NCBI GenBank assembly: GCA_964536215.1
Contig: CAZHWT010000001.1
Coordinates: 15,671 to 79,670 of the forward strand
From: an uncultured Candidatus Saccharibacteria bacterium
Lineage (GTDB): Bacteria > Patescibacteriota > CAZHWT01
Reading direction: 5' to 3'
DNA length: 64,000 nt
Part shown: positions 7,915 to 59,047 of the stretch, piece after piece
Layout of the letters: each line of letters starts with the position of its first letter
Numbering within the stretch: the stretch's first letter is position 1
Notes under the pieces: model-generated
What the model was told of the DNA's origin: nothing
Databases searched by the model: none
What the model saw: only the letters and a program-made list of their open reading frames with translations
Position numbers and translations under genes: made by a program

Positions 7915-7915
7915 T

Positions 7916-7943
7916 TGGGGCAAAAACAACGCTGTTTTTGCCC
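7916..7943. terminator. Hairpin ggggcaaaaacaacgctgtttttgcccc (12-bp stem)
   Basis: Perfect inverted repeat directly after the stop codon at 7914. Confidence 0.55.
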
Positions 7944-7974
7944 CTTTCCCTTGACTGGAATGCTACGAATGGGT

Positions 7975-8052
7975 TTTTAGTTTGTGGTTTATAGTTTATA
8001 GTTATACGAATGATACGAATTGCCATAACCCATTAACGATAAACGATAAACG
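7975..8052. repeat. AT-rich short tandem repeats (ggtttttagtttgtggtttatagtttatag ... acgataaacgataaacgaat)
   Basis: Member of the dispersed GGTTTATGG/TAGTTTAT and CGATAAA 7-mer repeat family. Also seen at 32385-32500, 44976-45010, 45575-45620, 47535-47565 and 54634-54720. Confidence 0.6.
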
Positions 8053-8058
8053 AATTAT

Positions 8059-10140
8059 ATGTCTCCAGATACGTCCGTTGCTACTTTGCCATTTGTTGGC
8101 ACTAAATATGAACAGCTTTTAGCCCACTTGGGCATTAAAACAGTGCGCGATTTGCTGTATCACTTGCCGTCACGATATGTGGACTTATCCAAAATGACAC
8201 CAATTGAAGATTTGGTGGAGGGTGAGTTGCAGGTGGTTAAGGCCAAGGTGGAGTCGATTAAAAAGGTTCGACTTAAGGGAGGTGGGCGAGTGATGATTAC
8301 GGCAACGGCTTCGGATGATACTGATCAATTGCAGTTAACTTGGTTTAATCAGCCGTATATGGAAAAGTCGCTCACAGTGGGCCAGGACTACCGCTTTGCT
8401 GGCGAGCCAGAGTTTAAGTTTGGCAAGTTTCAGATGACCAGCCCTACCCATGAACTGGCCAGCAAACCCATGGTCCATACAGGTAGAATTGTGCCTATTT
8501 ACCCACTAACAGCCGGAGTGACATCAAAATGGTTGAGGGCGCGAATTGCTCCGTTATTACCCAAAGTCGAAGTGGTCGTGCCGGAATTTTTACCAGACGC
8601 TATTCTGTCCAAGTATGATTTAGCCTCATTGCCTGAAGCTATTAGACACCTACACGCGCCAGAGACCATGGAGCAGGCTGGCATAGCCAGACGACGACTG
8701 GCATTTAATGAACTGCTTTTATTGCAACTGGCTTCCTTGCAGCGAAAAATGGCCCAGGGTCAGAGTGCCGCAGCGCCAGCACTGAGAGTGGGGAGAAAGG
8801 AGATAAGAGAGTGGGTTATGGGTTTGCCCTTTGACTTAACTGAGGCTCAGCAAAAAGTCATTGATGAAATTACAACTGATTTAGCAAAGAGTCAACCAAT
8901 GAATCGCCTGGTTGAGGGTGATGTTGGTTCGGGTAAAACAGTGGTGGCTGCGGCCGCGGCTTTGGCGGCGGCGTTTAATGGTTACCAGACGGCCGTAATG
9001 GCACCAACATCGGTGTTGGCGCAGCAACACTATCAAACGTTTCAAGCATTACTTGAGGGTGCAAGGGTGCGAGCGGGCGAGGCGGCGAGGAGAGCATCCC
9101 AGACATTGGATGAAGAGACTAAACCTGAGGGCCGAGAGTTGAGACCCGTTAGCGTTGCTTTGCGGACGGCCAAATCCAAGATGCCGCCAGCGGATATTAC
9201 CATTGGTACACACGCCTTGATTGCCAGTGGGGTAGAGTTTGAGGCTTTGGGACTGGTGATTATTGATGAGCAGCACCGATTTGGTGTAGCACAGCGAGCC
9301 GAATTAATGAGCAAGGCTGGGCACGGAGTCCATTTGTTGTCTATGACTGCCACACCAATCCCGCGGACCCTGGCTTTGACAGCTTATGGCGACTTGGATT
9401 TATCGATTATTGATCAGATGCCAGCCAACAGACTGCCTATCAAAACACACGTTGTGCCAGAGCATAAACGAGCCGATATGGAAGACTACCTTGATGCGGC
9501 TATGGCCAGAGGAGAGCAGGTCTTTATTGTCTGTCCGCTTATTGACGAGTCTGACAAGGTTACAGAAGTGCGAGCAGCTACGGCTGAGTTTGAGCGGCTC
9601 CAGCAAGTGTTTGGTCAACGGCGCTTAGCTTTATTGCACGGCCGGATGAAAGCAGCCGACAAAGACCAAATTTTGGCCGAGTTTAAGAATCATCAGTTTG
9701 ACGCTTTGGTGGCTACGCCAGTGGTAGAAGTAGGCATTGACGTACCTAACGCTACAATGCTGGTTATTGAAGGGGCAGAGCGATTTGGTTTGGCTCAGCT
9801 ACACCAGTTACGCGGTCGGGTTGGGCGTGGCGATAAACAATCGTATTGTTTTTTGTTGAGCGACGCTAAAAAGGCTAAGGACATTGCTAGATTGCGCCAT
9901 ATGGAGCATGAGTCAAGCGGCATTGCTCTGGCCGAGCTAGACTTGGCTACGCGCGGTCCCGGTGAAGTCTATGGGCACCGCCAGAGCGGTATTCCAGAGT
10001 TAAAAGCAGCCTCGTTTATGGATGTTGAGCTCACCCAAACTACGCATGAGGCTGCCGAAGGTCTTATTGCTAGCTTGAATAGTTATCCCAACTTAGAGCG
10101 GGAACTGAGTCGCACACAAAAGTTGGTTGAAATGAATTAG
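8059..10140 (+). CDS. recG: ATP-dependent DNA helicase RecG
   Basis: N-terminal wedge/OB region. Helicase motif I (GDVGSGKT), DEQH box (IIDEQHRFG). C-terminal helicase domain. 693 aa. Confidence 0.85.
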   Translation: MSPDTSVATLPFVGTKYEQLLAHLGIKTVRDLLYHLPSRYVDLSKMTPIEDLVEGELQVVKAKVESIKKVRLKGGGRVMITATASDDTDQLQLTWFNQPYMEKSLTVGQDYRFAGEPEFKFGKFQMTSPTHELASKPMVHTGRIVPIYPLTAGVTSKWLRARIAPLLPKVEVVVPEFLPDAILSKYDLASLPEAIRHLHAPETMEQAGIARRRLAFNELLLLQLASLQRKMAQGQSAAAPALRVGRKEIREWVMGLPFDLTEAQQKVIDEITTDLAKSQPMNRLVEGDVGSGKTVVAAAAALAAAFNGYQTAVMAPTSVLAQQHYQTFQALLEGARVRAGEAARRASQTLDEETKPEGRELRPVSVALRTAKSKMPPADITIGTHALIASGVEFEALGLVIIDEQHRFGVAQRAELMSKAGHGVHLLSMTATPIPRTLALTAYGDLDLSIIDQMPANRLPIKTHVVPEHKRADMEDYLDAAMARGEQVFIVCPLIDESDKVTEVRAATAEFERLQQVFGQRRLALLHGRMKAADKDQILAEFKNHQFDALVATPVVEVGIDVPNATMLVIEGAERFGLAQLHQLRGRVGRGDKQSYCFLLSDAKKAKDIARLRHMEHESSGIALAELDLATRGPGEVYGHRQSGIPELKAASFMDVELTQTTHEAAEGLIASLNSYPNLERELSRTQKLVEMN

Positions 10141-10420
10141 TGTCTGTTTTGATACTAATTAAGGAGCTCTCTGAGGGTATGGCCCAATGCGCACATCGCC
10201 CAGTCTGACAACGCCCCTCTTTACAACTGAGAAAAATAGAGTTATAACAAAGGCTCACAGGACTACATTGCCAGCAAGCTGGCTACGCACAGAAGGAGAG
10301 CCTGTCGTGAAAAAGTTCCTGACCGAAGTTTGGGCCAACCTTATTAAGTTGGTTCGGCTCGACGACGATTGTCGGACAACCTCTCGGCGTTCATAATATG
10401 ACGTCGCATGTCCCTATCTT

Positions 10421-10456
10421 AAGCCATCTCTAGCGTCCTAGAGATGGCTTTTTAAT
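10421..10456 (+). terminator. Rho-independent terminator (aagccatctctag cgtc ctagagatggctt plus T-run)
   Basis: 13-bp stem followed by tttttaatt. Confidence 0.55.
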
Positions 10457-10502
10457 TATAGATTTGTCTAACCCCATAATTACCTTAATTGCTTACTATA
10501 GG

Positions 10503-10531
10503 TTGACTTATTATTTAAAGGCGGCTATAAT
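10503..10531 (+). promoter_or_regulatory. Sigma-70-type promoter: TTGACT -N17- TATAAT
   Basis: Consensus -35 and -10 boxes with 17-nt spacing, ~40 nt upstream of ATG 10573, which is preceded by an aagggagggg SD. Confidence 0.5.
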
Positions 10532-10572
10532 AATGATTGTTCGAAATGTTGGCTTTTTAAAGGGAGGGGCAA

Positions 10573-11166
10573 ATGCCTGCTTTCGCATCGCTGTTTTATA
10601 GTCTTGGCGTTGAAATTGGCTGGATCGTCCGTATGCTGACCACCAACAAACGCCATACTTTGGGGTTTGTTTCAGTGGTTGTCACCACCCTAATTATAGC
10701 TTGGAGTGGTTTCATGGATCAGCAATACCCCCAAGCTGAGGTGCACCAAGTCGCTGACGAAACTAGTTTCAGCTTAGCCGGAGTAACTGGATTTCATGTC
10801 GTTTTGAACGATCCTCTGGCGCGATTTAAGATGGATCCAGACGGCTATGAACCGTTTAATCGCTCAGGGGACGGAATATTTCGCAGCCAAGAGCAGTCGG
10901 AGTTGCCCGTCAACTGGGAATCAGTAGTAGTTACTGGCGAAGGCAGCTGGCAAGTCACGCAGCCCTACGCCTTCTGGCAACAAGCTCCTACCACTACGGT
11001 TGAAATGTGGGGACGCGATTCGGGTTTTACATTAACTGTGTACAAAGATAGGGCAGAATATTGGACCCTGCTTTGTGCCGGATATTTCCTGATTCTTTTA
11101 CCTTCCGTAGGCGGATACCTTCTGACCGACCAGAAGCTCCGACGTAGTTGGCACCTGCCATATTAG
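10573..11166 (+). CDS. Hypothetical membrane-anchored protein
   Basis: 197-aa ORF with an N-terminal TM segment, a strong promoter and SD. No recognisable family. Confidence 0.45.
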   Translation: MPAFASLFYSLGVEIGWIVRMLTTNKRHTLGFVSVVVTTLIIAWSGFMDQQYPQAEVHQVADETSFSLAGVTGFHVVLNDPLARFKMDPDGYEPFNRSGDGIFRSQEQSELPVNWESVVVTGEGSWQVTQPYAFWQQAPTTTVEMWGRDSGFTLTVYKDRAEYWTLLCAGYFLILLPSVGGYLLTDQKLRRSWHLPY

Positions 11167-11173
11167 CATTGTG

Positions 11174-11209
11174 CCACAGGAGTAATTTATTGATAAATTA
11201 CTCCTGTGG
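11174..11209. terminator. Perfect 17-bp-stem hairpin (ccacaggagtaatttat tg ataaattactcctgtgg). Bidirectional terminator.
   Basis: Perfect inverted repeat immediately after the stop at 11166. Confidence 0.55.
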
Positions 11210-11359
11210 CAGACCAAATTGCCCAATCCCATCCTGCTCTGTTGCCTCCATTCTTTTCCAAATCTATATCAAAATCGTCCGCACATACCTCGTCGTATAC
11301 ATAGCAATCTACGCATAGTGAGCATATATTTACCGGTAGTTCTCTGATATACTACAGAT

Positions 11360-11944
11360 ATGCGTATAAGCGGTGGTTTTGCGCGGGGGTTACCCTTACG
11401 CGTGCCAAAAATTTCTGATATTCGTCCGGCCCAGGAGATGGTTCGTCAGGCAGTTTTTTCTATATTAGGAGACCGCGTGAAGGATGCTACCGTGCTTGAT
11501 ATTTATGCTGGGTCTGGCGCCTACGGCCTTGAGGCCTTATCTCGAGGAGCGGCTCATGCCACTTTTGTTGATACCAATGTTGAGTCAATTAAGGCTATTA
11601 AAGCCAATCTGGATGTTGGTCGATTTTGGGGCAAGGCGGAAGTCGTACAGCTCGATGCTTTGCGATACCTATCAGAAGAGGCTGGCCAACTACCGTTCGA
11701 CCTTATTTTTGCGGATCCACCATACGAATACGGTCTCCCATCGGGCCTCCTGTTTCACTTAGCCGAAGTCTTGGCTGATGATGGACTAGTTGTTTTTGAC
11801 CACGTTAAGGGTTTGAATTTTGATAGGGGAGAAGACCTAGAGGTAATTGAGACGCGGACATATGGAGGATCAGGAGTAACATTCTTGAGGAAGAATCCAA
11901 GTATCCAAGGACCCAAGCATCCAAAACAAGGTATACGTACTTAA
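11360..11944 (+). CDS. rsmD: 16S rRNA (guanine966-N2)-methyltransferase RsmD
   Basis: SAM-binding motif (DIYAGSGAYGLEAL) and catalytic FADPPY motif. A TATACT -10 box sits 7 nt upstream of the ATG, so the mRNA is possibly leaderless. Confidence 0.7.
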   Translation: MRISGGFARGLPLRVPKISDIRPAQEMVRQAVFSILGDRVKDATVLDIYAGSGAYGLEALSRGAAHATFVDTNVESIKAIKANLDVGRFWGKAEVVQLDALRYLSEEAGQLPFDLIFADPPYEYGLPSGLLFHLAEVLADDGLVVFDHVKGLNFDRGEDLEVIETRTYGGSGVTFLRKNPSIQGPKHPKQGIRT

Positions 11945-14799: not shown

Positions 14800-15501
14800 T
14801 TAGAATGGGTTGTCTTTACCGGTAATAGTTTGAGCCGAGGTTGGAGCGTATGATGCCAAGTGCAATGAATCAATAGCTGTCAATGTTGCTTCTTTAGCTG
14901 ATGTGCGCTGTGGTAGCGGCTCTTCAGCTGGTCCAAGGTCCTCCGGGAACGGCTGGTAAGGGCTAGAAACGTCAAAGGTGGCTACTAATGTCCCATCCTC
15001 GTCGCTCGACGGCACAATATGTAGACTGGTTAACGACACAACCCGAGCCACTGTTTCTGACTGTCGAATAAAGTTAACGATATTGGCATACCCACCCACA
15101 ACTGATAAGTTTGTCTCTACGGTACTGCCTGATTCAGTGTTTTTTACCACGGTTTTGTCCTGACCATATCGTACGCCTTGCGTGGAGGCTCCAGCACCCA
15201 CAGCTACTTGCTCCAGCGTTCCTAATAGACCAGCTGGATCAGCTTGCGAAGGAATGACTGGTTCAACTTTCTCGGTTAGCGTCGCTTTATTTTGTTCTGC
15301 CTGCAATCCTTGCAAAGCGGCCACTTTCTCCTTTAATGCGTCTAGCTTTGTCTGCTTGTCAGACATAGTTTTAAAGCTATCTTGTATATCCCCAACCCAT
15401 GGCAACGCTAAGAGTGGAATAACGGCAATAAGAATGACAGCCGCCGCAACGGGCATAATATATGGCTTAAAGCTATCAACGGTCATTGTAGGCGTGTTCA
15501 T
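14800..15501 (-). CDS. pilO: Type IV pilus assembly protein PilO-like
   Basis: N-terminal TM, then coiled coil, then periplasmic-type domain. Overlaps the pilN stop by 4 nt. Confidence 0.5.
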   Translation of the reverse strand: MNTPTMTVDSFKPYIMPVAAAVILIAVIPLLALPWVGDIQDSFKTMSDKQTKLDALKEKVAALQGLQAEQNKATLTEKVEPVIPSQADPAGLLGTLEQVAVGAGASTQGVRYGQDKTVVKNTESGSTVETNLSVVGGYANIVNFIRQSETVARVVSLTSLHIVPSSDEDGTLVATFDVSSPYQPFPEDLGPAEEPLPQRTSAKEATLTAIDSLHLASYAPTSAQTITGKDNPF

Positions 15502-16127
15502 GATTGGTCTCCGGTAGGGGTAGGGGTTGGTGTAGGTGTAGCACTGGGCAACGCAGCCAACGATTGAGGAGTCAGGCTGAAGGTTACGGTAAAGGCGATA
15601 GTGGAGGACTGGTCATCGCGGCCAATCATGACTAGGGCTGGTTTGGTGAAGTAGGGACTTTCCTCATTGTCTGAGGTAGCTCCTTGGGTGCGCAATTTAT
15701 CGTAGAAGCCGGCCAAGTCAGCATAGGTTGTAACTGTGCCCGAAATGGTGGCTATATCCGAAGCATCGACAGACATATCAGTTAACTGCATAGACGCAGG
15801 CACCGTTTGGCTAAATTGAGTTAGGAAGGTAGAGTAATGCTTTTGTGTCGCAAAAAAATTACTGAGCGATGTTAATTTGGTATCCAAGGCGCGGTAGACG
15901 CCTTCTGCCTCTTTGTACGTCTGCACTTTTTGTGTCTCGGTGTTTATGGAATTATCTATGCTAGTAAGGCTGGCCTGCAGGGCAAGTTTGCCGGCAAATA
16001 AACCGCCAACGGCCACAATCGTTATAATAAGAACGACGACGCTTACTGTAGTGAGCATCTTTTGTTGGCGAACTTTAGGGGTAACTTCGGCAGTTTGACT
16101 TGGTAAAAGGTTAATATCTTGGGCCAT
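15498..16127 (-). CDS. pilN: Type IV pilus assembly protein PilN-like
   Basis: INLLP motif at the N-terminus. Single TM. Sits downstream of pilM. Confidence 0.6.
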   Translation of the reverse strand: MAQDINLLPSQTAEVTPKVRQQKMLTTVSVVVLIITIVAVGGLFAGKLALQASLTSIDNSINTETQKVQTYKEAEGVYRALDTKLTSLSNFFATQKHYSTFLTQFSQTVPASMQLTDMSVDASDIATISGTVTTYADLAGFYDKLRTQGATSDNEESPYFTKPALVMIGRDDQSSTIAFTVTFSLTPQSLAALPSATPTPTPTPTGDQS

Positions 16128-22355: not shown

Positions 22356-23102
22356 CTAACAGGCCTGGACTCTCAGGGTGGTTCGAGATATATATAAGCA
22401 TTGGTAAATAGTGGTCCAAAAAGCCTTTGATTGAAATTTTAAAATGGTATGTCCAGCACTTGGAAGATTGGTCCGACCCGTTACTGTATCGTACGTAATA
22501 CCTTCTTCTGCTACTTTAAAGCCAGTGTATGAGCTGTCTTCACCATCTGCCTTCATAATTTTAATTGAGGAGTTAAAATCTCTAGTAATAATTGGATCTG
22601 GAGTAGGATTGGTTTTGCAGGCCGTAACGCCATCAGCGGCGGTGGCGCGCCACTCGGGAACAACCTGGTAGCCAGTATACGCATAGGGGTCGCCAGTGCT
22701 AATGAGGCTAAAGGCGTAGTCATTGATATAGGTAGTGTCACCGTCACAGTCACTGGATAATTCATCTGGGTTTTTACTGGCATCAGCTTGGTCTTGATAG
22801 TTTGAGAGGGCTCTAGCTCTGGCTGTTTTTATGTCGCTAGCCATTTGATTGGCAGCATTGGACAATTGCTGGTGTTGATAGATGCCAAAGAGACTAGGAA
22901 TAGCTATGGCAGCTACGATGCCCATAATGGCAATAGCCACCAATAACTCAAGCAGCGTAAACCCAGCCGGGGGCGAAGTCGAGCAACGATCTGGCTTGCT
23001 TGAACGATGAAGCTTGGCGATTGCTACGATCGACGCAGTTTGCTTCTGATGCTTTTGTATCCGTATCCTGACATTCAATTGATGGGCAGTTAGAATTTTC
23101 AT
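22356..23102 (-). CDS. Type IV pilin-like protein with unusually long basic leader (MKILTAHQLNVRIRIQKHQKQ...PPAG|FTLLELLVAIAIMGI)
   Basis: Canonical G|FTLLEL motif ~46 aa after the first in-frame ATG. ATG 23102 overlaps the pilD stop. The ORF-track extension to 23477 is spurious. Confidence 0.5.
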   Translation of the reverse strand: MKILTAHQLNVRIRIQKHQKQTASIVAIAKLHRSSKPDRCSTSPPAGFTLLELLVAIAIMGIVAAIAIPSLFGIYQHQQLSNAANQMASDIKTARARALSNYQDQADASKNPDELSSDCDGDTTYINDYAFSLISTGDPYAYTGYQVVPEWRATAADGVTACKTNPTPDPIITRDFNSSIKIMKADGEDSSYTGFKVAEEGITYDTVTGRTNLPSAGHTILKFQSKAFWTTIYQCLYISRTTLRVQAC

Positions 23103-23971
23103 AGCAATAGCTGTTGATACCAGGTTGCAATTATGGGCGTTAACCAGAGCGAAAGCAGTGTGCCGACGACCAAAAAGGGGCCAAAGGGGATTGTCTGGCC
23201 GAATGTTTTTTGCTTGGCTGCTAACAGAAGCAATGATAGCACGGCGCCCAAAATAAAGGCAAGATAAATAGCTACAATAATAGCCGGATATCCCAGAAAG
23301 AGGCCCATTAAAAGTGCTAACTTGACATCTCCCAGCCCCATGCCTGGTTTGTGGAGGATTTTTTCCGACCCCCAGACGATGATTAGGAAGAATAGCGCGG
23401 CGGATAGTCCGCTGACCAAAGTAGGCGAGTAGGTGAGTAGGTGAGTAGGTGAGTCCAGGCTGGCTAAGGGTTGCCATGTAAGGGGTTGTTGTAAGATTGC
23501 GGCTAGTATCGCCATGACTAAAGTTAAAGCTGCACCACCTAGGGTCCAGATATCAGGCAAATAGCCCCAGCGAAGGTCGTAGACGAACAGAGCGATGAGT
23601 AACGCAGTCATAACCCAAACGAATACTAGTGTGGCGATTTGCCAAGCGTCTAGCGTGTAGCGTGTAGCGTCTAGTCCATACATATACACAAAGCTAGTCA
23701 CAAAACTAAAGGCAGTTGTTAGCTCGATAGCTATATATTGAGGTGAGATTTTTTTATGACAATACCGGCAGCGGCCGCCTAAGAGAAGGTAGGAAATAAC
23801 CGGAATAAGGTCGAGAGGAGAGAGGGTATGCTGACAATGAGGGCAGACAGAGTGTTTCTCTAGCATGGAGCGGTCATTATAGACTCGCCAAATCCAAGCA
23901 GTTAAGAAACTACCAATCATAGCTCCAAGAATAGCAACAAAAATTATGGTAGCGATGAGGATAAGAAGCAT
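23099..23971 (-). CDS. pilD: Prepilin peptidase (A24 family) PilD, with in-frame tandem-repeat insertions
   Basis: N-terminal CxxC...CxxC zinc-binding domain (CPHCQH...CRYCHKK). Eight TM helices. Repeats GTAGGTGA x4 (23421-23460) and TAGCGTG x3 (23641-23670) are read in frame. Confidence 0.8.
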   Translation of the reverse strand: MLLILIATIIFVAILGAMIGSFLTAWIWRVYNDRSMLEKHSVCPHCQHTLSPLDLIPVISYLLLGGRCRYCHKKISPQYIAIELTTAFSFVTSFVYMYGLDATRYTLDAWQIATLVFVWVMTALLIALFVYDLRWGYLPDIWTLGGAALTLVMAILAAILQQPLTWQPLASLDSPTHLLTYSPTLVSGLSAALFFLIIVWGSEKILHKPGMGLGDVKLALLMGLFLGYPAIIVAIYLAFILGAVLSLLLLAAKQKTFGQTIPFGPFLVVGTLLSLWLTPIIATWYQQLLL

Positions 23972-29917: not shown

Positions 29918-30017
29918 TTGATTGATGGCTAATCGCTAATCGTTAATCGCTAATCGTTAATCGTATATCGTAAACCCCGATTTAATCGGGGTAAATCGCA
30001 CCTTGCTTTTGAACAAG

Positions 30018-30058
30018 TCAATGTACATACACGTGTACGTACACGTGTATGTACATCG
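30018..30058. repeat. 32-bp perfect palindrome gtacatacacgtgtacgtacacgtgtatgtac (GTAC/ACGT-rich)
   Basis: Self-complementary. Related GTACGTACACGT palindromes occur at 24030-24060, 37205-37240, 44215-44245 and 54855-54890. Confidence 0.6.
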
Positions 30059-32368: not shown

Positions 32369-32384
32369 TACGAATGATGATTGG

Positions 32385-32500
32385 TTTATGGTTTTTAGTT
32401 TATAGTTTTTAGTTGCTACGAATAGCCGAAATTACCAATAGCTAATGACCATAAACCATAAACTACGAACTGTAAACCGCAAACCATAACCTAAAAACTA
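32385..32500. repeat. Long imperfect inverted repeat built from GGTTTATGG/TAGTTTAT units between gyrB and gyrA
   Basis: Left arm ggtttatggtttttagtttatag. Right arm aaaccataaactacgaactgtaaaccgcaaaccataacc. Confidence 0.55.
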
Positions 32501-32506
32501 ACCACT

Positions 32507-37118: not shown

Positions 37119-37431
37119 TACTGTTTGTTTTGTCGGGCATATCGCTATCCAGTGCCCTCAAGCAGAATCGACTGCGGCCAATCTGAACATCTCTATCTAC
37201 CAGCATCAACTGAAGTACGTACACATGTACGTACATGTGTACGTACTTGCGCAAATTACAAAACTCCTACTTTCAGTGCTGTCATTCAATACGATGGATT
37301 TTAGTTTATTACTATGATAGCTAAATATTTATCATTCCTTGCCGCTAAAAGTATGTATCGAACGGCTACTTAAGCCGATGTATACACCACTTGCAAAAAC
37401 CATAAAATTTTAGGTCGATTTGAGCAGAAAT

Positions 37432-44921: not shown

Positions 44922-44941
44922 AGCTATCGAGCTCACTACCA

Positions 44942-44975
44942 GACGCCACAGCACCGTGGCGTCTTTTTTCATTGC
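44942..44975. terminator. Hairpin agacgccac agcaccg tggcgtct plus T7
   Basis: 9-bp stem followed by ttttttt. Sits between convergent genes. Confidence 0.55.
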
Positions 44976-45012
44976 GTTTATTCAATCAACGATAAACGAT
45001 AAATGATACCCC

Positions 45013-45532
45013 TTAGGCTTCGAATTCAACCAGGATAGGAAGATGATCAGAGACTTGGGTAGATATAATTTGACTATTGATAATTTTCCAGGTCGCGCTG
45101 CGGAGTGGCCATAAACCGATCAGTGTACGAAGCATGAGTAGTGCCAACGCACAACGGCTGGTCAGCCCCGATATTGAGCTCAACTTGGCTATAGGCGCGC
45201 GTTTCGCTAGCAAAATCGCTAGAGCTAGTGGCCGTTTGCGTTTCGACATGTGATGGCGAGGAGAGAGGGTATCGGCTAATAATGGCATTGCCTTGCTCTC
45301 TATCGATGTTGCCCTGCTGATTAATCCATTGCTGAGCAGCAACATAGTACCCCCGATACGGTTTGCCCAGTTTTTGCATCACACTATCTGCGCTTGTTAC
45401 ATACGGGCGGAAGGACGTGGCGACGACTTCCTGCAGGCACATGATGTCCGGCCTGATATCAGCAATACATTCAGCAACCTTTTGCGGATCTTCTTTATAC
45501 CAAATGTTCCATTGCAGTAAGATTATTTTCAT
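45013..45532 (-). pseudogene. Endonuclease/exonuclease/phosphatase (EEP) family gene, split by a frameshift in an A4 homopolymer near 45079-45086
   Basis: N-terminal EEP part (LQWNIWYKEDP...DIMCLQEV) lies in ORF 45074..45532. The C-terminal SDHLPILVEFEA signature is in a different frame (ORF 45013..45345). Deleting one A in ggaaaatt would fuse ...RDLE to IINSQIISTQVSDHLPI. Confidence 0.5.
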
Positions 45533-45615
45533 CTAAAAAGGACGTATCCGTGCTAGCATCGTCTCAAATCTGCCAACTATAAACTACGAACCATAAACCA
45601 TAAACTCATTCGTAT

Positions 45616-46584: not shown

Positions 46585-46602
46585 GGTTTAAGGGTACAGG
46601 TT

Positions 46603-46672
46603 GAAGGTTGAAGGTTCAAGTGTTTTGAATTGAGCTGCACTCTAACCTTTAATCTTCAACCTACATATACCC
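46603..46672. repeat. Inverted repeat aggttgaaggttgaaggttcaag ... cctttaatcttcaacct immediately upstream of xerC
   Basis: ~17-nt arms built from GTTGAAG heptamer units. A related gtgaagggtgaagg / ccttcaccctt structure sits at 43338-43410. Confidence 0.45.
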
Positions 46673-47930
46673 AATCCTGGCATATCCTCTTGTCGAAAAA
46701 ACGTTTTGAAGGGGTAAACTGTCATCTTTTCCGCGTCCATCGCTTCTAGGGCCCTTGTAGGGCTTCGTATATGTTTTTTGCTTTTGCAGCAATAAATACT
46801 TACTTTTTAGTATCTACCCCCTATCTATAGCGTGGGCGACAGGGGAGTGGTAGGCAGGGAAATTCGACTATATCTGAGTATATTGAGCCATCTAGCATTC
46901 ATTTAGGCGGGAGAGGCTGTGGGGGAGACAATTGGCTGCATTTTTTAAGACATTTTCAACACGATTGTGCGCAAGCATGGCTGAAGGGGAAAATTTTGGC
47001 AAATTATTTGAAATATATTTTAATTGTCTATCAACGCATGGATGGCAGGAGGGGAGAGGAAAAATAATAATACTAGACGTCTTTAAATGTATCTTTAGAG
47101 ACGTCTAAGAGGAGTGAAACAGCCGGGGAAGAGGTGCGAGAGAGGGGCTTAGCTTTGAAGATGTGGTCATATTTTTATTAAATATGGCACTTGTATTGTT
47201 TGTTTTACGCTCAAGTTTGCTGAATTTGGCGAATCTTTCGGCCTGTCTTGGCTGGTTTGACTTAGGCTAACCGATTACCGCTTGTCTTTGAGGTCAGCAA
47301 CGGAGATATCTGAGTAAATCTGTGCTACGTATGCATGAATTAAGGCTTATCCACATAGCTTATTAGCAATCATTGTTAGTTGGTGTTAATTTTGGCATAT
47401 TTTTCAGCAAATTTTCCCTTTATTTTCCCCACAGCTTTGTGATGCTAGTTTGAGCAAGTGAAATTTTTTGAAATTTTGGTGAATTTTTTATGAGACCGGG
47501 GAGATGCTCTACTCTGGGGTGAGTGTGGACTTATGGTTGGTAGTTAATGGTTTATGGTTCGTAGCTTTTTATGACATGTGTGTAGTTGGAGAAAACTGCA
47601 TCAGACTAGATCATACCTTATTTTACTATAGGTCTCTTTATATGCTATAGTTTCCATATCTATGTTTCCATGTATATCCTATAGTTTTTTGTTATCGGTC
47701 TTCCCTCTTCCTTGCTAAGTCTCCCTATCTCACTCCCCTTTCTCTGAGGTCTGACACCAAATTCTTGGGCCAAGGTTTAGGTTAATTGGGCTATTTTGAC
47801 CCTATTTGTTGTGCGCCTGCGCCCAGCATGCAGGTAGTGTTTGATTGTTTTTCAATCTGATGCAGCTACTTGAGCTTCTGCATGCATTATACTACTATAG
47901 GCTTTTTTCTATGCGCCTCTCGCCTACTCT

Positions 47931-54633: not shown

Positions 54634-54720
54634 TTGTTAAACGTTAAACGTTAAACGTTAAACGTTAATCGTTTATGATTAGCGATTAGCGATTAGCGAT
54701 TAGCGATTAGCGATTAGCGA
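54634..54720. repeat. Two adjacent heptamer microsatellites: (TAAACGT)x4-5 then (GATTAGC)x6
   Basis: Perfect tandem copies in an intergenic region. Confidence 0.7.
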
Positions 54721-54904
54721 TTAAGGGGATTTTAGCACGAGGTGGTATTTGTTTATTTTGCGTCTTGTGACTTGGTTTGGCATTTGGATTCTTGTGCCTT
54801 GGCATTTACCGGTGAGTTTGAATATTTCATAGTCGCCTGATTCCATTCCTTTAGCCCGATTATACGTATATGTATATGTATACGTATACCTTAGGATACA
54901 AAAA

Positions 54905-55083: not shown

Positions 55084-56112
55084 CTAACGTGGTTGTCCCA
55101 GCCGGTTAAGGACGTCTACACCGACTACCAATTCAACATCAGCCCTTTCTCGGCCGGTTTTGGCGGCTACGGTTAAGGGGACGCCCAGCAAATTAGTAAG
55201 TCCGGCGGTTAGCCGGGTACTTTTTTCGGCAGTCATAGTGGTGTTAGCCTGTCCGGAGTCGGCTGGCTCTACAGCGACCACTTCCCCACCTAGATGGTGA
55301 GCGTATCTGGCAGTTAAAGCGGCAAGCCCCGGTACATCGGTAGCGTTCTTAACCACAATGCTCACCCCTTGGTTGACTGCCTGCTGGTCAACGAGTGTTC
55401 GTTCGACGAGCGGATCGAGTTGGTCAGTTTGACCTACCGTCATCCCCTTGTCGGTGCGACTAAAGGCCGCAGCGTCGATAGACTGAATGGTGATGCGACT
55501 ATCGTCGGCATCTCGGACTAGCCATACCGTTTGAATAAATTGCCAAGGTGACAGATTGGTACGAACCTCTGGCTGGTTTAAGAGCCACCACGGGGCCGAA
55601 GCGGTTGTCTGCCACCAGCTAGGCTTGGGCTGGCGGAGGAACAAGGCCGACCAGCTCTGTGCTTCTGGCAATACTGCCCCCGATGGTTGAATAATATACC
55701 CATTTATAGGTAGAGCTAGCGTTTGCTCGACTAATTGCTGCAGTTCTTTATAGTAGCCATTTTGCAAATAGTCGGCTGCTGTAGTCTGACCGTCTGATAG
55801 GTCGGTTGGCAATTGCAGAATTGAGAAGCCACGGTCTTCGGTCCAGACCCTCATAATGGCTAGCGATTGGAGCTGAGCGGCGTCGGAAGCAGATTGCTGG
55901 GCAATCAGGTAGACTGGGTTATCCATTGTGGAAGTAATGAAAGAATGAGGAGTGCTAGTAGGATAGGTCTTGACCGCATGACTAACCGCCAGAGCAGCGG
56001 TCACCCCCCACCAGCCGAACAAGCCAATACAGGCTATGCCAACGAGGCGGAATAGCCAGACTTTTAGACTCGACCTAGAGCGACTATGCCGCTTAGTGTG
56101 ACGGCGCTTCAT
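55084..56112 (-). CDS. Hypothetical membrane-anchored extracytoplasmic protein (possibly LytR/LCP-like)
   Basis: Basic N-terminus. Single TM (LFRLVGIACIGLFGWWGV). 342 aa. Family assignment is weak. Confidence 0.35.
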   Translation of the reverse strand: MKRRHTKRHSRSRSSLKVWLFRLVGIACIGLFGWWGVTAALAVSHAVKTYPTSTPHSFITSTMDNPVYLIAQQSASDAAQLQSLAIMRVWTEDRGFSILQLPTDLSDGQTTAADYLQNGYYKELQQLVEQTLALPINGYIIQPSGAVLPEAQSWSALFLRQPKPSWWQTTASAPWWLLNQPEVRTNLSPWQFIQTVWLVRDADDSRITIQSIDAAAFSRTDKGMTVGQTDQLDPLVERTLVDQQAVNQGVSIVVKNATDVPGLAALTARYAHHLGGEVVAVEPADSGQANTTMTAEKSTRLTAGLTNLLGVPLTVAAKTGRERADVELVVGVDVLNRLGQPR

Positions 56113-57359
56113 GGTACATACTCCTGTTTTAAGGCTTGAAAAGCAGCTGGACCATCTTCTAACGCGGTTCGAACTTTTTGCATGAGACCAAGCATGGTAT
56201 AGACATTATGGTACGAGGCTAAGCGAGCGCCGAGGATTTCACCAGCCCGGCAGAGGTGGTTAAGGTAGGCACGGGTATACGTAGTGCAGACCCAGCAGCG
56301 ACAGGTCGGATCCGGTGGTGAAAAATCCTGGCGATATTTGCCATTGGTAATAATTAAACGATAGGGGTTGGCTGAGCCTTCAGCTTTGGCTGTTTGCGGA
56401 TGAACGATAAGGGTGCCGTTGCGAGCCCAGCGGGTGGGAGTAACACAGTCGAACGTGTCTATACCCCGCTCTACGCCCATAAAAATGTCATCTATATCCC
56501 CTACTCCCAGCAAATGGCGTGGCTTGGCTGGATTGAGATGAGGCGTGCTCCATTCAACGGCTTGGCGCATTTGGTCCTTGCTCTCCCCCACCGAGACGCC
56601 GCCGACGCAATACCCGTCAAAATCGAGCGTATCAATATATTTGGCAGATTGTTGGCGTAAATCCTGATAAACGCCGCCCTGAGTAATGCCGAATAGATGT
56701 TGATGCGATTGGCCGTGCTGCTGATGATAGTCTAGGCCCCGCTTGGCCCAGGCGTGAGTACGCTGCATAGCCTCCTGAGTGTATTCATGGGTGGCTGGAT
56801 GTGGGGCACATTCATCAAAGGACAGAATAATGTCAGCGCCGATTTTGTGCTGAGTGGCTAAGGAGATTTCGGGAGTAAAACGATGAATAGAGCCGTCCAA
56901 GTGAGAGTGGAAGGTGACGCCGTCATCGTCAATGCGGGCCAGGAGGGGTGAGTTTCGAGTTTCGAGTTTCGAGTTTCGAGTTTGGGATTGGAGGGCGAGG
57001 GACGAGTCTCTTGCTGCCTTGCTGCCTTGCTGTCTTGCTGCTTTACCTAATCCAAGACTAAAAACCTGAAAACCACCGGAATCCGTAAATAAGGCGCCGG
57101 GCCAGGATTGAAATTGATGCAGCCCGCCAGCCGCGGCGATAGTGTCGGCACCCGGACGCATGTATAGGTGATAGGTGTTGCCGAGAATGAGGCGGGCACC
57201 CATATCCCATAATTCTTGCTGGGACAAGGTTTTAACCGTAGCTTGAGTGCCGACTGGAAAAAAGGCTGGCGTTTCAATGGAGCCATGGCTGGTGTTAATG
57301 CGACCACGACGAGCAGCGGTACCCGGCAGCGTTTGCAGTTGTTCAAAAAACGGCGTCAT
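56109..57359 (-). CDS. tgt: Queuine tRNA-ribosyltransferase (tRNA-guanine transglycosylase) carrying an in-frame microsatellite insertion
   Basis: Tgt motifs (LILGNTYHLYMRPG; zinc site CRCWVC...H). 416 aa. Extra ~40 aa (KAARQQGSKAARDSS...TRNSKLETRNSKLETRNSPL) are encoded by the repeats at 56950-57041. Confidence 0.85.
   Translation of the reverse strand: MTPFFEQLQTLPGTAARRGRINTSHGSIETPAFFPVGTQATVKTLSQQELWDMGARLILGNTYHLYMRPGADTIAAAGGLHQFQSWPGALFTDSGGFQVFSLGLGKAARQQGSKAARDSSLALQSQTRNSKLETRNSPLLARIDDDGVTFHSHLDGSIHRFTPEISLATQHKIGADIILSFDECAPHPATHEYTQEAMQRTHAWAKRGLDYHQQHGQSHQHLFGITQGGVYQDLRQQSAKYIDTLDFDGYCVGGVSVGESKDQMRQAVEWSTPHLNPAKPRHLLGVGDIDDIFMGVERGIDTFDCVTPTRWARNGTLIVHPQTAKAEGSANPYRLIITNGKYRQDFSPPDPTCRCWVCTTYTRAYLNHLCRAGEILGARLASYHNVYTMLGLMQKVRTALEDGPAAFQALKQEYVP
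56950..57041. repeat. Intragenic microsatellites inside tgt: (GAGTTTC)x5 at 56950-56984 and (CTTGCTGC)x4 at 57010-57041
   Basis: Perfect or near-perfect tandem heptamer and octamer copies, translated in frame as KLETRNS repeats and AARQ/GSKAAR. Confidence 0.8.
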
Positions 57360-59047
57360 TGATACCCCCTGGCGGCCAGATGTTGTAAGTGGTGCAGCTT
57401 AGCTTCGGACAATTCTTGTAAGTTTTGCCAATGATCTTTGACTACTTGGGCAATCGCATGGTTACCCAATAGATATGGCAGGATAACATAACTAGCCCCC
57501 TGGCGGTAATAGATGAGGGCATCTTCAACATTAGTAGCGGTTAAAACTAGTGGAGTGTTGGGGGCTAGTTGATTGCGTAAATGCATAATCTGTAGGTTAG
57601 CATGGTGCTGATCTATGGAGGAGACGATCAATTTAGCCCGACTAATACTAGCCTCTTCTAAGACTGTTTCGTCGGTGGCATCGCCAAAAATAGTTGGATA
57701 TCGATCGCCATCCAAATCCACTACTCGCTGCGGATTGTATTCAACCACGACTAGGGGTACGGAAAGTTGCTTGAGGAGGTGCAAAATGTCTTCGCCCAAA
57801 CTACTAGCGCCAAGGATGACTACGTGATCCTGCAATGAATGAGTCTTAATCTTATCACGACGCGATGAAGTTTTTTCCAAACGATTAAAGAGGGGTCGCA
57901 GCCAACGATAGACGGCCTGTTGGTGCTTTAGAACATAGCTCTGGCCTAGAATGGTGACTAGCACTACGGCCGTGATTAAAGAGGCAACCCGAGGATCTAA
58001 CTGATGTAAATTAAGGCCTAGCGACACCACTAGTAGGGAGAATTCACCGATTTGGCCGAATAATTGTGAGGTAAAGAAGATAGTATGCCGCTTGTACCCC
58101 AGGCGACCCAAAACAAAGGCAACACAGAACTGATTAAGAACGATAACTAATAGGCTTAGGATGACAATTGGTATGAGTAGCGAACCGATGGCTGTCAGGG
58201 ATAGTTGTAGGCCAATGACGATAAAGAACAGGGCGATAAAAAAATCCCGAAGGGGCTTAATACTAGCTACGATCTGGTAGCGATAGGCTGAAGCGGAGAG
58301 ACATAGTCCAGCCAAGAAGGCGCCAATCTCCAGAGAAAAGCCGGTCCATTGAGCAATGGCGGCCATAAAGACGCATAGTCCAATACTGCCTAAGAATAGT
58401 AGTTCGGCCGACGAAGCGAGAGCAAAGAAAAGCTTGGGAACGACGTAGCGGCTAAAGGCGAAACTACCAACTAGTAAGGCTGCACCTTTCGTGAGCATTA
58501 GCGCTGTTTCGATCACCCCTAATTGGCCGGCAGCTCCAGAGCTAATACTAGTGAGGAAAATGAGCGCTCCAACGGCTAAAAGGTCCTGGACGAGTAAAAT
58601 ACCTAAGCCTAAGCGACCATGAAGGGAGAAGACGGCATTTTGGTCGTTTAGCCATTTGACGGCAATAATGGTGGAGGTAAGCGGCAGAGAAAGAGCAATA
58701 AATAGAGAAACGGTCGGGCTAAATCCTAAAAGCTGGCTGGCTAGCCAACCGGCCGAACCAACTACGGCGACTTGAGTAATGGCTACAATAGTAGCGGTTT
58801 TACCCATTTTTTTAATTTCGGTCAGGCTCAACTCTAGGCCAACCAAAAACAATAAGAAGGCAATACCAAGTTCGCCTAAAAAGGCCAGCGTTTGTGGCGA
58901 AGTTATATGAACGGCGCCGGCGTTAGCGACTACCATACCGGTAATCAAGTAGGCGAAAAATAGTGGTTGTTTAAGACGGTAGCAGATGAGGCCTAATAGT
59001 GTGGCCAGAGTCAGAATACCGCCCAGCTCGAAGAATAGTTGATCCAT
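57356..59047 (-). CDS. kefB: CPA2-family cation:proton antiporter with C-terminal RCK/TrkA-N domain (KefB/KefC-like)
   Basis: 12-13 TM Na_H_Exchanger domain. Rossmann-fold RCK domain (HVVILGASSLGEDI). 563 aa. Confidence 0.75.
   Translation of the reverse strand: MDQLFFELGGILTLATLLGLICYRLKQPLFFAYLITGMVVANAGAVHITSPQTLAFLGELGIAFLLFLVGLELSLTEIKKMGKTATIVAITQVAVVGSAGWLASQLLGFSPTVSLFIALSLPLTSTIIAVKWLNDQNAVFSLHGRLGLGILLVQDLLAVGALIFLTSISSGAAGQLGVIETALMLTKGAALLVGSFAFSRYVVPKLFFALASSAELLFLGSIGLCVFMAAIAQWTGFSLEIGAFLAGLCLSASAYRYQIVASIKPLRDFFIALFFIVIGLQLSLTAIGSLLIPIVILSLLVIVLNQFCVAFVLGRLGYKRHTIFFTSQLFGQIGEFSLLVVSLGLNLHQLDPRVASLITAVVLVTILGQSYVLKHQQAVYRWLRPLFNRLEKTSSRRDKIKTHSLQDHVVILGASSLGEDILHLLKQLSVPLVVVEYNPQRVVDLDGDRYPTIFGDATDETVLEEASISRAKLIVSSIDQHHANLQIMHLRNQLAPNTPLVLTATNVEDALIYYRQGASYVILPYLLGNHAIAQVVKDHWQNLQELSEAKLHHLQHLAARGYQ

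Follow-up and report, generated by a model that had tools for sequence, protein, structure and literature searches.

Among the closest described systems to the locus reported here is neuO of the CUS-3 prophage in Escherichia coli K1, whose 5' coding region carries a 5'-AAGACTC-3' variable-number tandem repeat (VNTR) present in 3-53 copies, mostly 20; the gene is OFF in ~66% of genomes, and switching within cultures has been measured (PMC13001214). The Haemophilus influenzae gene hmw1A likewise contains (AATTTTG)14 within its open reading frame (ORF) (PMC2651432). Heptameric simple sequence repeats (SSRs) are also overrepresented in Xanthomonas and Nostoc, where they are mostly intergenic, scarce in coding DNA and typically ~four units long (PMC4692102). 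Here we describe two tandem arrays, one of heptamers and one of octamers, inside tgt, the gene for tRNA guanosine(34) transglycosylase (Tgt), in a 64,000-nucleotide stretch of contig CAZHWT010000001.1 from an uncultured Candidatus Saccharibacteria bacterium (the whole stretch is hereafter called the window). An initial annotation of this DNA had taken the arrays for microsatellites inserted into an otherwise canonical, essential enzyme, with the architecture of a contingency locus. We consider it likely that they are instead a tolerated by-product of genome-wide repeat growth, which has remodelled an ancestral and tolerant loop of Tgt.

Tandem Repeats Finder (TRF) placed both arrays in frame within the 416-residue tgt ORF on the minus strand, in agreement with the initial annotation. 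The octamer array (57010-57041; 4.0 copies, 91% matches) comes first on the coding strand, where its unit is GCAGCAAG (CTTGCTGC x4 on the plus strand, the third unit being CTTGCTGT), and it translates to AARQQGSKAAR (A107-R117), as had been annotated. A non-repetitive 26-nt spacer (56984-57009; D118-S125, DSSLALQS), open in all three reading frames, separates it from the heptamer array (56950-56983; 4.9 copies, 100% matches), which reads GAGTTTC on the plus strand and GAAACTC on the coding strand. The latter encodes Q126-S137, QTRNSKLETRNS, amounting to ~1.6 heptads rather than the KLETRNS-KLETRNS run annotated earlier, and stops two codons short of L140, the equivalent of E. coli I101. Together the arrays encode about two thirds of a variable segment of 36 residues, L104-L139 (56943-57050, minus strand), which is inserted in the tRNA-recognition loop between the equivalents of E. 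coli D100 and I101. The heptamer array is one of just five perfect arrays of at least three copies in the window.

The enzyme that surrounds this segment shows every sign of integrity. The product of tgt (56109-57359, minus strand) scores 462.6 bits against TIGR00430, exceeding the equivalog cutoff of 306.75, and matches Zymomonas mobilis Tgt in the PDB with E=3e-100. Its AlphaFold2 (AF2) model has an overall predicted local distance difference test score (pLDDT) of 87.6, and a Foldseek comparison with Z. mobilis Tgt gave a target-normalised TM-score of 0.92-0.93 (E ~1e-43), identifying the TIM-barrel Tgt fold. Alignments show that D93, D182, C184 and D304, the last within DTFDC (301), are retained (reference residues in Z. 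mobilis: D102, D156 and D280), as is the zinc site CxCxxC...H, here CRCWVC at 353-358 and H384. Judged from these alignments and the model, tgt encodes a bona fide, intact-looking bacterial Tgt, predicted to catalyse base exchange on tRNA Asn, Asp, His and Tyr. Two orthologs, P0010 (locus L007, ~10001-11224) and P0017, have S-D-N-W-A-S (DPRSDNWASRTY...) in place of the zinc-binding CxCxxC while the remaining enzyme is kept, and may be zinc-less or inactive Tgt variants of related Saccharibacteria.

Comparison with homologs places the segment in the clade rather than in this genome. A segment occupies the identical site in all 16 closest orthologs (67-76% identity), two of which are labelled uncultured Candidatus Saccharibacteria, and spans 10-45 residues against 36 in the window; the notion of an insertion into an otherwise canonical Tgt is thus not upheld, and no ortholog in this set lacks the segment. 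More widely, the spacer between the motifs DSGGFQ and GVTF measures 21-88 residues in 110 of the 120 top homologs, compared to 13 in Z. mobilis, and the long-spacer homologs include other Patescibacteria as well as sequences labelled Chloroflexi and Vulcanimicrobiota. Over the 17 closest sequences, identity drops to 23% in the variable segment from 78% in the remaining protein. The pLDDT of the window model falls to 38-57 over residues 99-140, consistent with the surface loop that the initial annotation had anticipated: the segment is modelled as a low-confidence surface excursion. The net charge of the loop is +5 in the window and +3 to +8 in 15 relatives with comparable loop length, all of these loops being Lys/Arg-rich; the 7-residue loop of P0017 has a net charge of +1. 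On these alignments, the window Tgt is best described as carrying the hypervariable loop usual in its clade, at the usual length, and not as a canonical Tgt plus an insertion.

What sets the window apart is the repetitive nature of the loop. The six orthologous loops examined as DNA contain no tandem arrays, and peptide periodicity is seen in the window loop only, among 110 homolog loops. The initial annotation had named, as evidence that would speak against it, homologs from unrelated taxa with the same segment in non-repetitive DNA; this is partly borne out, in that a segment encoded by non-repetitive DNA is found in homologs, although its sequence is different. The length attributed to the repeats also needs adjustment, as the window Tgt has ~35 extra residues at the loop site relative to E. 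coli and Z. mobilis Tgt, and not ~40. A further part of the additional length is explained by a second clade-specific insertion of ~11 residues, at residues ~316-333 (window 56361-56414; HPQTAKAEGSANPYRLII versus FVTDGVVKI in E. coli). Unlike the variable loop, this insertion is well conserved in Saccharibacteria-like orthologs, where it carries the motif EGSANPYRLIITN.

The loop can be placed relative to the tRNA by reference to a 2026 cryo-electron microscopy study of E. coli Tgt, which reports that loop L98-I104 has no ordered structure when tRNA is absent but adopts one in the covalent intermediate with tRNA, where the flipped-out base A37 is stacked by L98 and I101 (PMC13416341). In our alignment with E. 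coli K-12 Tgt, window residues L102 and G103 correspond to L98 and G99, and L140-I143 correspond to I101-I104. The L98 and G99 positions are invariant, and window L140 and I143 belong to the clade motif LLA[KR][VI]D; the stacking residues that flank the variable segment are conserved. The entire variable segment falls between the D100 and I101 equivalents. Two residues (G99 and D100) lie between the two A37-stacking positions in E. coli, in contrast to 37 in the window and 11-46 in relatives. Because the segment emerges between the equivalents of the A37-stacking residues, the excursion is rooted beside the bound anticodon loop, and we infer from this placement that the basic Saccharibacterial excursion may contact tRNA. 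We found no description in the literature of a basic, hypervariable excursion of 10-45 residues (up to ~75) at the A37-clamping loop of Tgt.

The second component of our reading is a repeat load that extends over the window. TRF returned 49 arrays in total, with period-7/8 rows at 5.2 per 10 kb compared to 0-2 per 10 kb in the loci of relatives. Perfect arrays of at least three copies are confined to period 7 (four arrays) and period 8 (one array), with none in the window at periods 5, 6, 9, 10 or 11; 50 shuffles of the window produced no perfect period 7-8 array of this size. Non-coding DNA makes up ~15% of the window and, after merging, contains 19 of the 25 period-7/8 arrays, a 17-fold bias (P=2.5e-11). 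No strong 7/8-nt array other than the two in tgt lies deep within a gene in the window, other coding matches being at protein ends. Six further families of units each appear at 2-3 intergenic loci, while neither AAACTCG nor AAGGCAGC, the units of the tgt arrays, forms a second array in the window; the earlier assignment of the tgt repeats to the same families as those of the intergenic DNA is therefore correct for the period and incorrect for the units. The window shares its period-7 excess and intergenic concentration with the (STRR-type) heptamer SSRs of Xanthomonas and Nostoc (PMC4692102). Those units are G-rich and G-quadruplex-capable, whereas the window units are diverse, mostly AT-rich and include octamers, in a Saccharibacteria-like host. 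We found no report of such heptamer/octamer repeats in the literature on the Saccharibacteria-like group.

Entry of such arrays into genes is restricted by their stop codons. Since neither 7 nor 8 shares a factor with 3, three or more consecutive units are read through every frame of the unit, and hence an ORF can hold such an array only if the unit is stop-free in every frame. Of 27 arrays, just 5 are built from a unit without stops on either strand, and 4 of these, the two in tgt among them, touch ORFs; stops occur on both strands of the common intergenic units GTTTATA, GCTAATC and GTTAAAC. As for the source of the tgt arrays, the octamer unit AGCAAGGCA occurs as a single copy at a comparable place in the orthologous loop of locus L003 (equalled in 12 of 2000 shuffles), and the protein sequence of ortholog P0004, the only level at which this comparison was made, shows GKAAKQ...RQGAKAA at the position of GKAARQQGSKAAR in the window. 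We consider native coding sequence for K-A-A-K/R-Q the probable origin of the octamer array, by growth in place. Structure-prone DNA was considered as a driver of slippage and rejected, as neither the octamer nor the segment as a whole outperforms shuffled sequence in folding (segment z +0.51); the heptamer forms weak TCGA mini-hairpins only (z -1.7 and -2.2).

In formal terms the locus does have the contingency architecture that had been claimed for it, namely non-triplet SSRs within an ORF in which a one-unit change abolishes the full-length product. Neither unit length is a multiple of three, and in our frame simulation the addition or removal of a single unit, in whichever array, cut Tgt short at 138-169 residues, whereas a three-unit change kept it at full length; the truncated products lack D182 as well as the Asp nucleophile and the zinc site. 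As the spacer is open in all frames, full length is also maintained if the two arrays change by numbers of units that are equal modulo 3, for example with one additional unit in each array, because 7+8=15. One third of copy-number combinations thereby leave Tgt full-length. The resemblance to neuO lies in a 7-nt in-ORF tandem unit that is read as a 7-residue heptad, and in a full-length product in one copy-number class modulo 3. The neuO unit and the tgt unit GAAACTC match at 5 of 7 positions in register (heptads RLKTQDS and KLETRNS, respectively), a similarity that we take as coincidence. The tgt locus differs in its 4.9 copies, in a second array of another period 26 nt away and in its mid-gene position within a conserved enzyme. 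The contingency loci of Haemophilus and Neisseria similarly comprise a non-triplet SSR within an ORF, in which a one-unit change shifts the frame (PMC2651432), but they display strain copy-number differences, long tracts and surface or restriction-modification roles, while for tgt it is the architecture that is known.

A frameshift in tgt would probably also be felt by its downstream neighbour. Upstream lies a CPA2 cation:proton antiporter gene with a TrkA_N domain (57356-59047, minus strand; NCBIfam matches), the stop codon of which overlaps the tgt start; downstream, the start of a gene for a LytR_C-like protein (55084-56112, minus strand; an ortholog has a weak LytR_C Pfam match) overlaps the tgt stop. 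Both overlaps read ATGA, indicating translational coupling on both sides, and a frameshifted (OFF) tgt would therefore probably be polar on the LytR_C-like gene. The gene order antiporter-tgt-LytR_C-like is kept in all six orthologous loci read, L001-L005 among them, as far as each contig reaches.

These observations bear on whether tgt is a contingency gene, in which slippage by one unit would switch Tgt, and hence queuosine-34 (Q34) modification, OFF and ON in the population. Both unit lengths are non-multiples of three, both arrays lie in the ORF and a one-unit change would leave a product of 138-169 residues without the greater part of the active site and without the zinc site. At 4-5 units the arrays surpass the permissive threshold of at least three units for hepta- and octanucleotide SSRs in H. 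influenzae (PMC2651432), and neuO offers a precedent for an in-ORF heptanucleotide switch, being ON only at copy numbers divisible by 3 (PMC13001214). An OFF state would moreover be viable: Q34 modification is described as dispensable for viability (PMC13326639), which removes the paradox of a switch in an enzyme that the initial annotation had called essential (on essentiality in Saccharibacteria, the main text of a transposon sequencing paper, Cell 2023, mentions neither tgt nor queuosine). Yet the tracts are short (4.9 and 4.0 units) compared to the 3-53, mostly 20, units of neuO and the 13-38 of hmw, and a cytoplasmic tRNA enzyme, neither a surface nor a restriction-modification protein, is an atypical gene class for such a switch; owing to the coupling on both sides, OFF alleles would probably reduce the downstream gene too. 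No close strain or truncated allele emerged from 5.8 billion protein clusters or from metagenome scans. The protein search returned the identical sequence and then, as the next match, one at 76% identity, with no strain variant between; a metagenome scan with a 24-mer spanning the junction of flank and repeat gave no match, one with a 20-mer from the flank gave 10 matches, all unrelated to tgt by BLAST, and a scan of a genome collection found two relatives only, at 70-71% identity. Finally, the arrays sit where any sequence is tolerated and similar arrays fill the non-coding DNA, so that a non-adaptive origin suffices. We therefore regard phase variation of tgt as unlikely. An equally doubtful proposal is that frame-preserving changes of copy number tune the enzyme between ON states, varying a basic, tRNA-facing loop in both length and sequence and so adjusting Tgt activity or tRNA preference. 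It draws on the one third of copy-number combinations that remain full-length across a spacer open in all frames, on the position of the segment, flanked by the counterparts of both residues that stack on A37 in the E. coli recognition loop, on a net charge of +5 in line with relatives and on earlier work, as cited in PMC13001214, according to which repeat length raises NeuO activity. No variant alleles are known, however, and close relatives tolerate 10-45 residues of nearly unrelated sequence, which points to weak constraint. The two proposals combine into a two-dial switch in an epibiotic Saccharibacterium, in which one-unit slippage turns Q34 modification OFF and matched changes in both arrays bring it back ON with a different tRNA-facing loop; we give this even less credence than either of its components. 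Were it true, Q34 OFF would reprogram the decoding of Asn, Asp, His and Tyr codons, and the switch would act on translation as phase-variable methyltransferase regulons act on transcription. Phase variation, if real, would make tgt the first switchable tRNA-modification enzyme of its kind, the architecture being the sole observation in favour of this.

Explanations of another sort concern the provenance of the repeats. Ogata and colleagues are said to have described, in 2000, Rickettsia palindromic elements inserted in frame in protein genes, and the tgt segment might similarly have been inserted in frame as a small repeat element, mobile or dispersed, either of that type or a miniature inverted-repeat transposable element (MITE). 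The Rickettsia case resembles ours in that an otherwise conserved housekeeping protein owes an additional surface segment to translated repetitive DNA, and the window does contain dispersed repeats: some intergenic heptamer arrays belong to a composite element (7915-8058 is homologous to 32369-32506), and six unit families recur at 2-3 loci. The Rickettsia elements, however, are dispersed, palindromic, ~100-150 bp long and lengthen the protein relative to orthologs, whereas the tgt segment is neither dispersed nor palindromic and adds no such length. Its units are unique, it has no other copy in the 64-kb window and no inverted repeats, and at 36 residues the loop is not longer than the 10-45 residues of orthologs. 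The sole flanking direct repeat, the 10-nt CGGGCCAGGA at 56935 and 57098, was rejected as a target-site duplication, since both copies are native, conserved coding sequence. Lacking another copy in the window, inverted repeats and a credible target-site duplication, the segment is very unlikely to derive from a mobile element. We attach just as little probability to an artefact of assembly or consensus calling in a metagenome-assembled genome. The source is indeed a metagenomic contig and the protein is recorded once, from NCBI on a contig of 95 kb, but arrays of 32-34 nt are shorter than typical read and k-mer lengths, such that their copy number should be resolved; the frame is kept through both arrays, the protein is conserved on both sides, and dozens of similar arrays in the window show the same period preference.

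We thus favour repeats that were tolerated, rather than selected, in an ancestral loop. Tgt of this Saccharibacteria-like clade carries an ancestral, poorly conserved, basic and probably disordered excursion within the dynamic loop by which the anticodon loop of the tRNA is recognised, in a genome unusually prone to the formation and expansion of tandem arrays with 7- and 8-nt units, which would have multiplied in a lineage-specific burst. Coding DNA would be kept almost free of them by selection. The two arrays in tgt would have arisen in the sole stretch of the gene where nearly any sequence, of nearly any length, is tolerated, and could have persisted there only through units that are stop-free in all frames, leaving a loop of ordinary length (36 residues) and charge (+5) and an intact enzyme. 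The arrays would be the product of slippage in place under near-neutrality, with no programmed switch. Several points weigh against this account. Neutrality and stability of the arrays are assumed, and the perfection of the heptamer array suggests that it is either recent or still homogenised by slippage, and hence somewhat mutable. The preserved charge and length of the loop could reflect selection on the repeat-encoded peptide instead of neutrality. With the closest relative just 76% identical, the ancestral loop sequence cannot be reconstructed; the single octamer seed in one ortholog is modest evidence (~P=0.04 allowing for six loops), and no ortholog loop examined contains anything recognisable as a seed for the heptamer unit.

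Other repeats in the window and in relatives illustrate where arrays meet coding DNA. An (AAGAATCC)x4.2 array at 11891-11924 (plus strand; ORF 11360-11944) lies in the C-terminal tail of an RsmD-like methyltransferase, past the end of the Pfam domain (residue 176 of 194), and a period-6 array, (GGTAGG)x4.8, at 15513-15541 (minus strand; ORF 15498-16127) encodes the extreme C-terminus of a PilN-like protein. An (AGTAGGTG)x4.4 array at 23420-23454 falls in ORF 22356-23477 (minus strand), the 373 residues of which appear over-extended: a prepilin N-methylation motif at residues 171-193 indicates that the true start is probably far downstream, and the array is therefore probably non-coding. This ORF belongs to a type IV pilus cluster (PilN-like, T2SSF, T2SSE) at ~15.5-27.2 kb. 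The rare heptamer arrays of relatives are likewise at protein ends: in L003 (9846-9868) a perfect (ACCAGCC)x3.3 lies within an ORF, in a Pro/Ala/Gln-rich, low-complexity C-terminal tail, and in L007 (6549-6575) a perfect (GCGACGA)x3.9 lies in the N-terminal extension of a pseudouridine-synthase-like ORF.

None of the longest and cleanest arrays in the window is coding, and stop codons are present on both strands of their units. At 54636-54723, downstream of the tgt operon, an intergenic perfect (GTTAAAC)x5.4 adjoins a perfect (GATTAGC)x6.7, the unit of which is the reverse complement of that of (GCTAATC)x5 at 29928-29963. The homologous composite elements at 7915-8058 and 32369-32506 lie directly upstream of plus-strand genes, and the element is also found at 44934-45073 and 45533-45615 on the minus strand. 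In it, a conserved TACGAATGA...AAATTGCCA core comes after a (GGTTTAT/GGTTTTTA)n array and precedes a second array (CCATAAA/CGATAAA) that approximates the reverse complement of the first, giving an imperfect palindrome of heptamer arrays; two copies folded as DNA gave z -2.6 and z -0.75. A class apart from the 7/8-mers is formed by 12-nt repeats with a common self-complementary unit (TGTACGTACACG / GTACGTACACAT), in ~2.7 copies each at intergenic 30022-30055 and 37215-37246. The region 46585-47930 comprises 1.35 kb without an ORF of at least 70 residues and contains six weak tandem arrays. A search of the whole window for Rfam families and tRNAs returned no matches.

Non-triplet SSRs in coding sequence are already known from neuO, and the proliferation of heptamer SSRs from Xanthomonas and Nostoc. 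If the explanation favoured here holds, the tgt locus would provide a clear natural case of non-triplet microsatellites writing protein sequence into a tolerant enzyme loop, and would point to a filter on repeats entering genes, which would admit stop-free units at length-unconstrained sites. Two by-products of the analysis may matter beyond the arrays themselves. The heptamer/octamer SSR load of this lineage, reminiscent of that in Xanthomonas and Nostoc, is perhaps more useful than the original claim of a contingency locus, and the excursion of 10-45 residues (up to ~75) in the Tgt of Saccharibacteria and many other Patescibacteria may likewise outvalue it.

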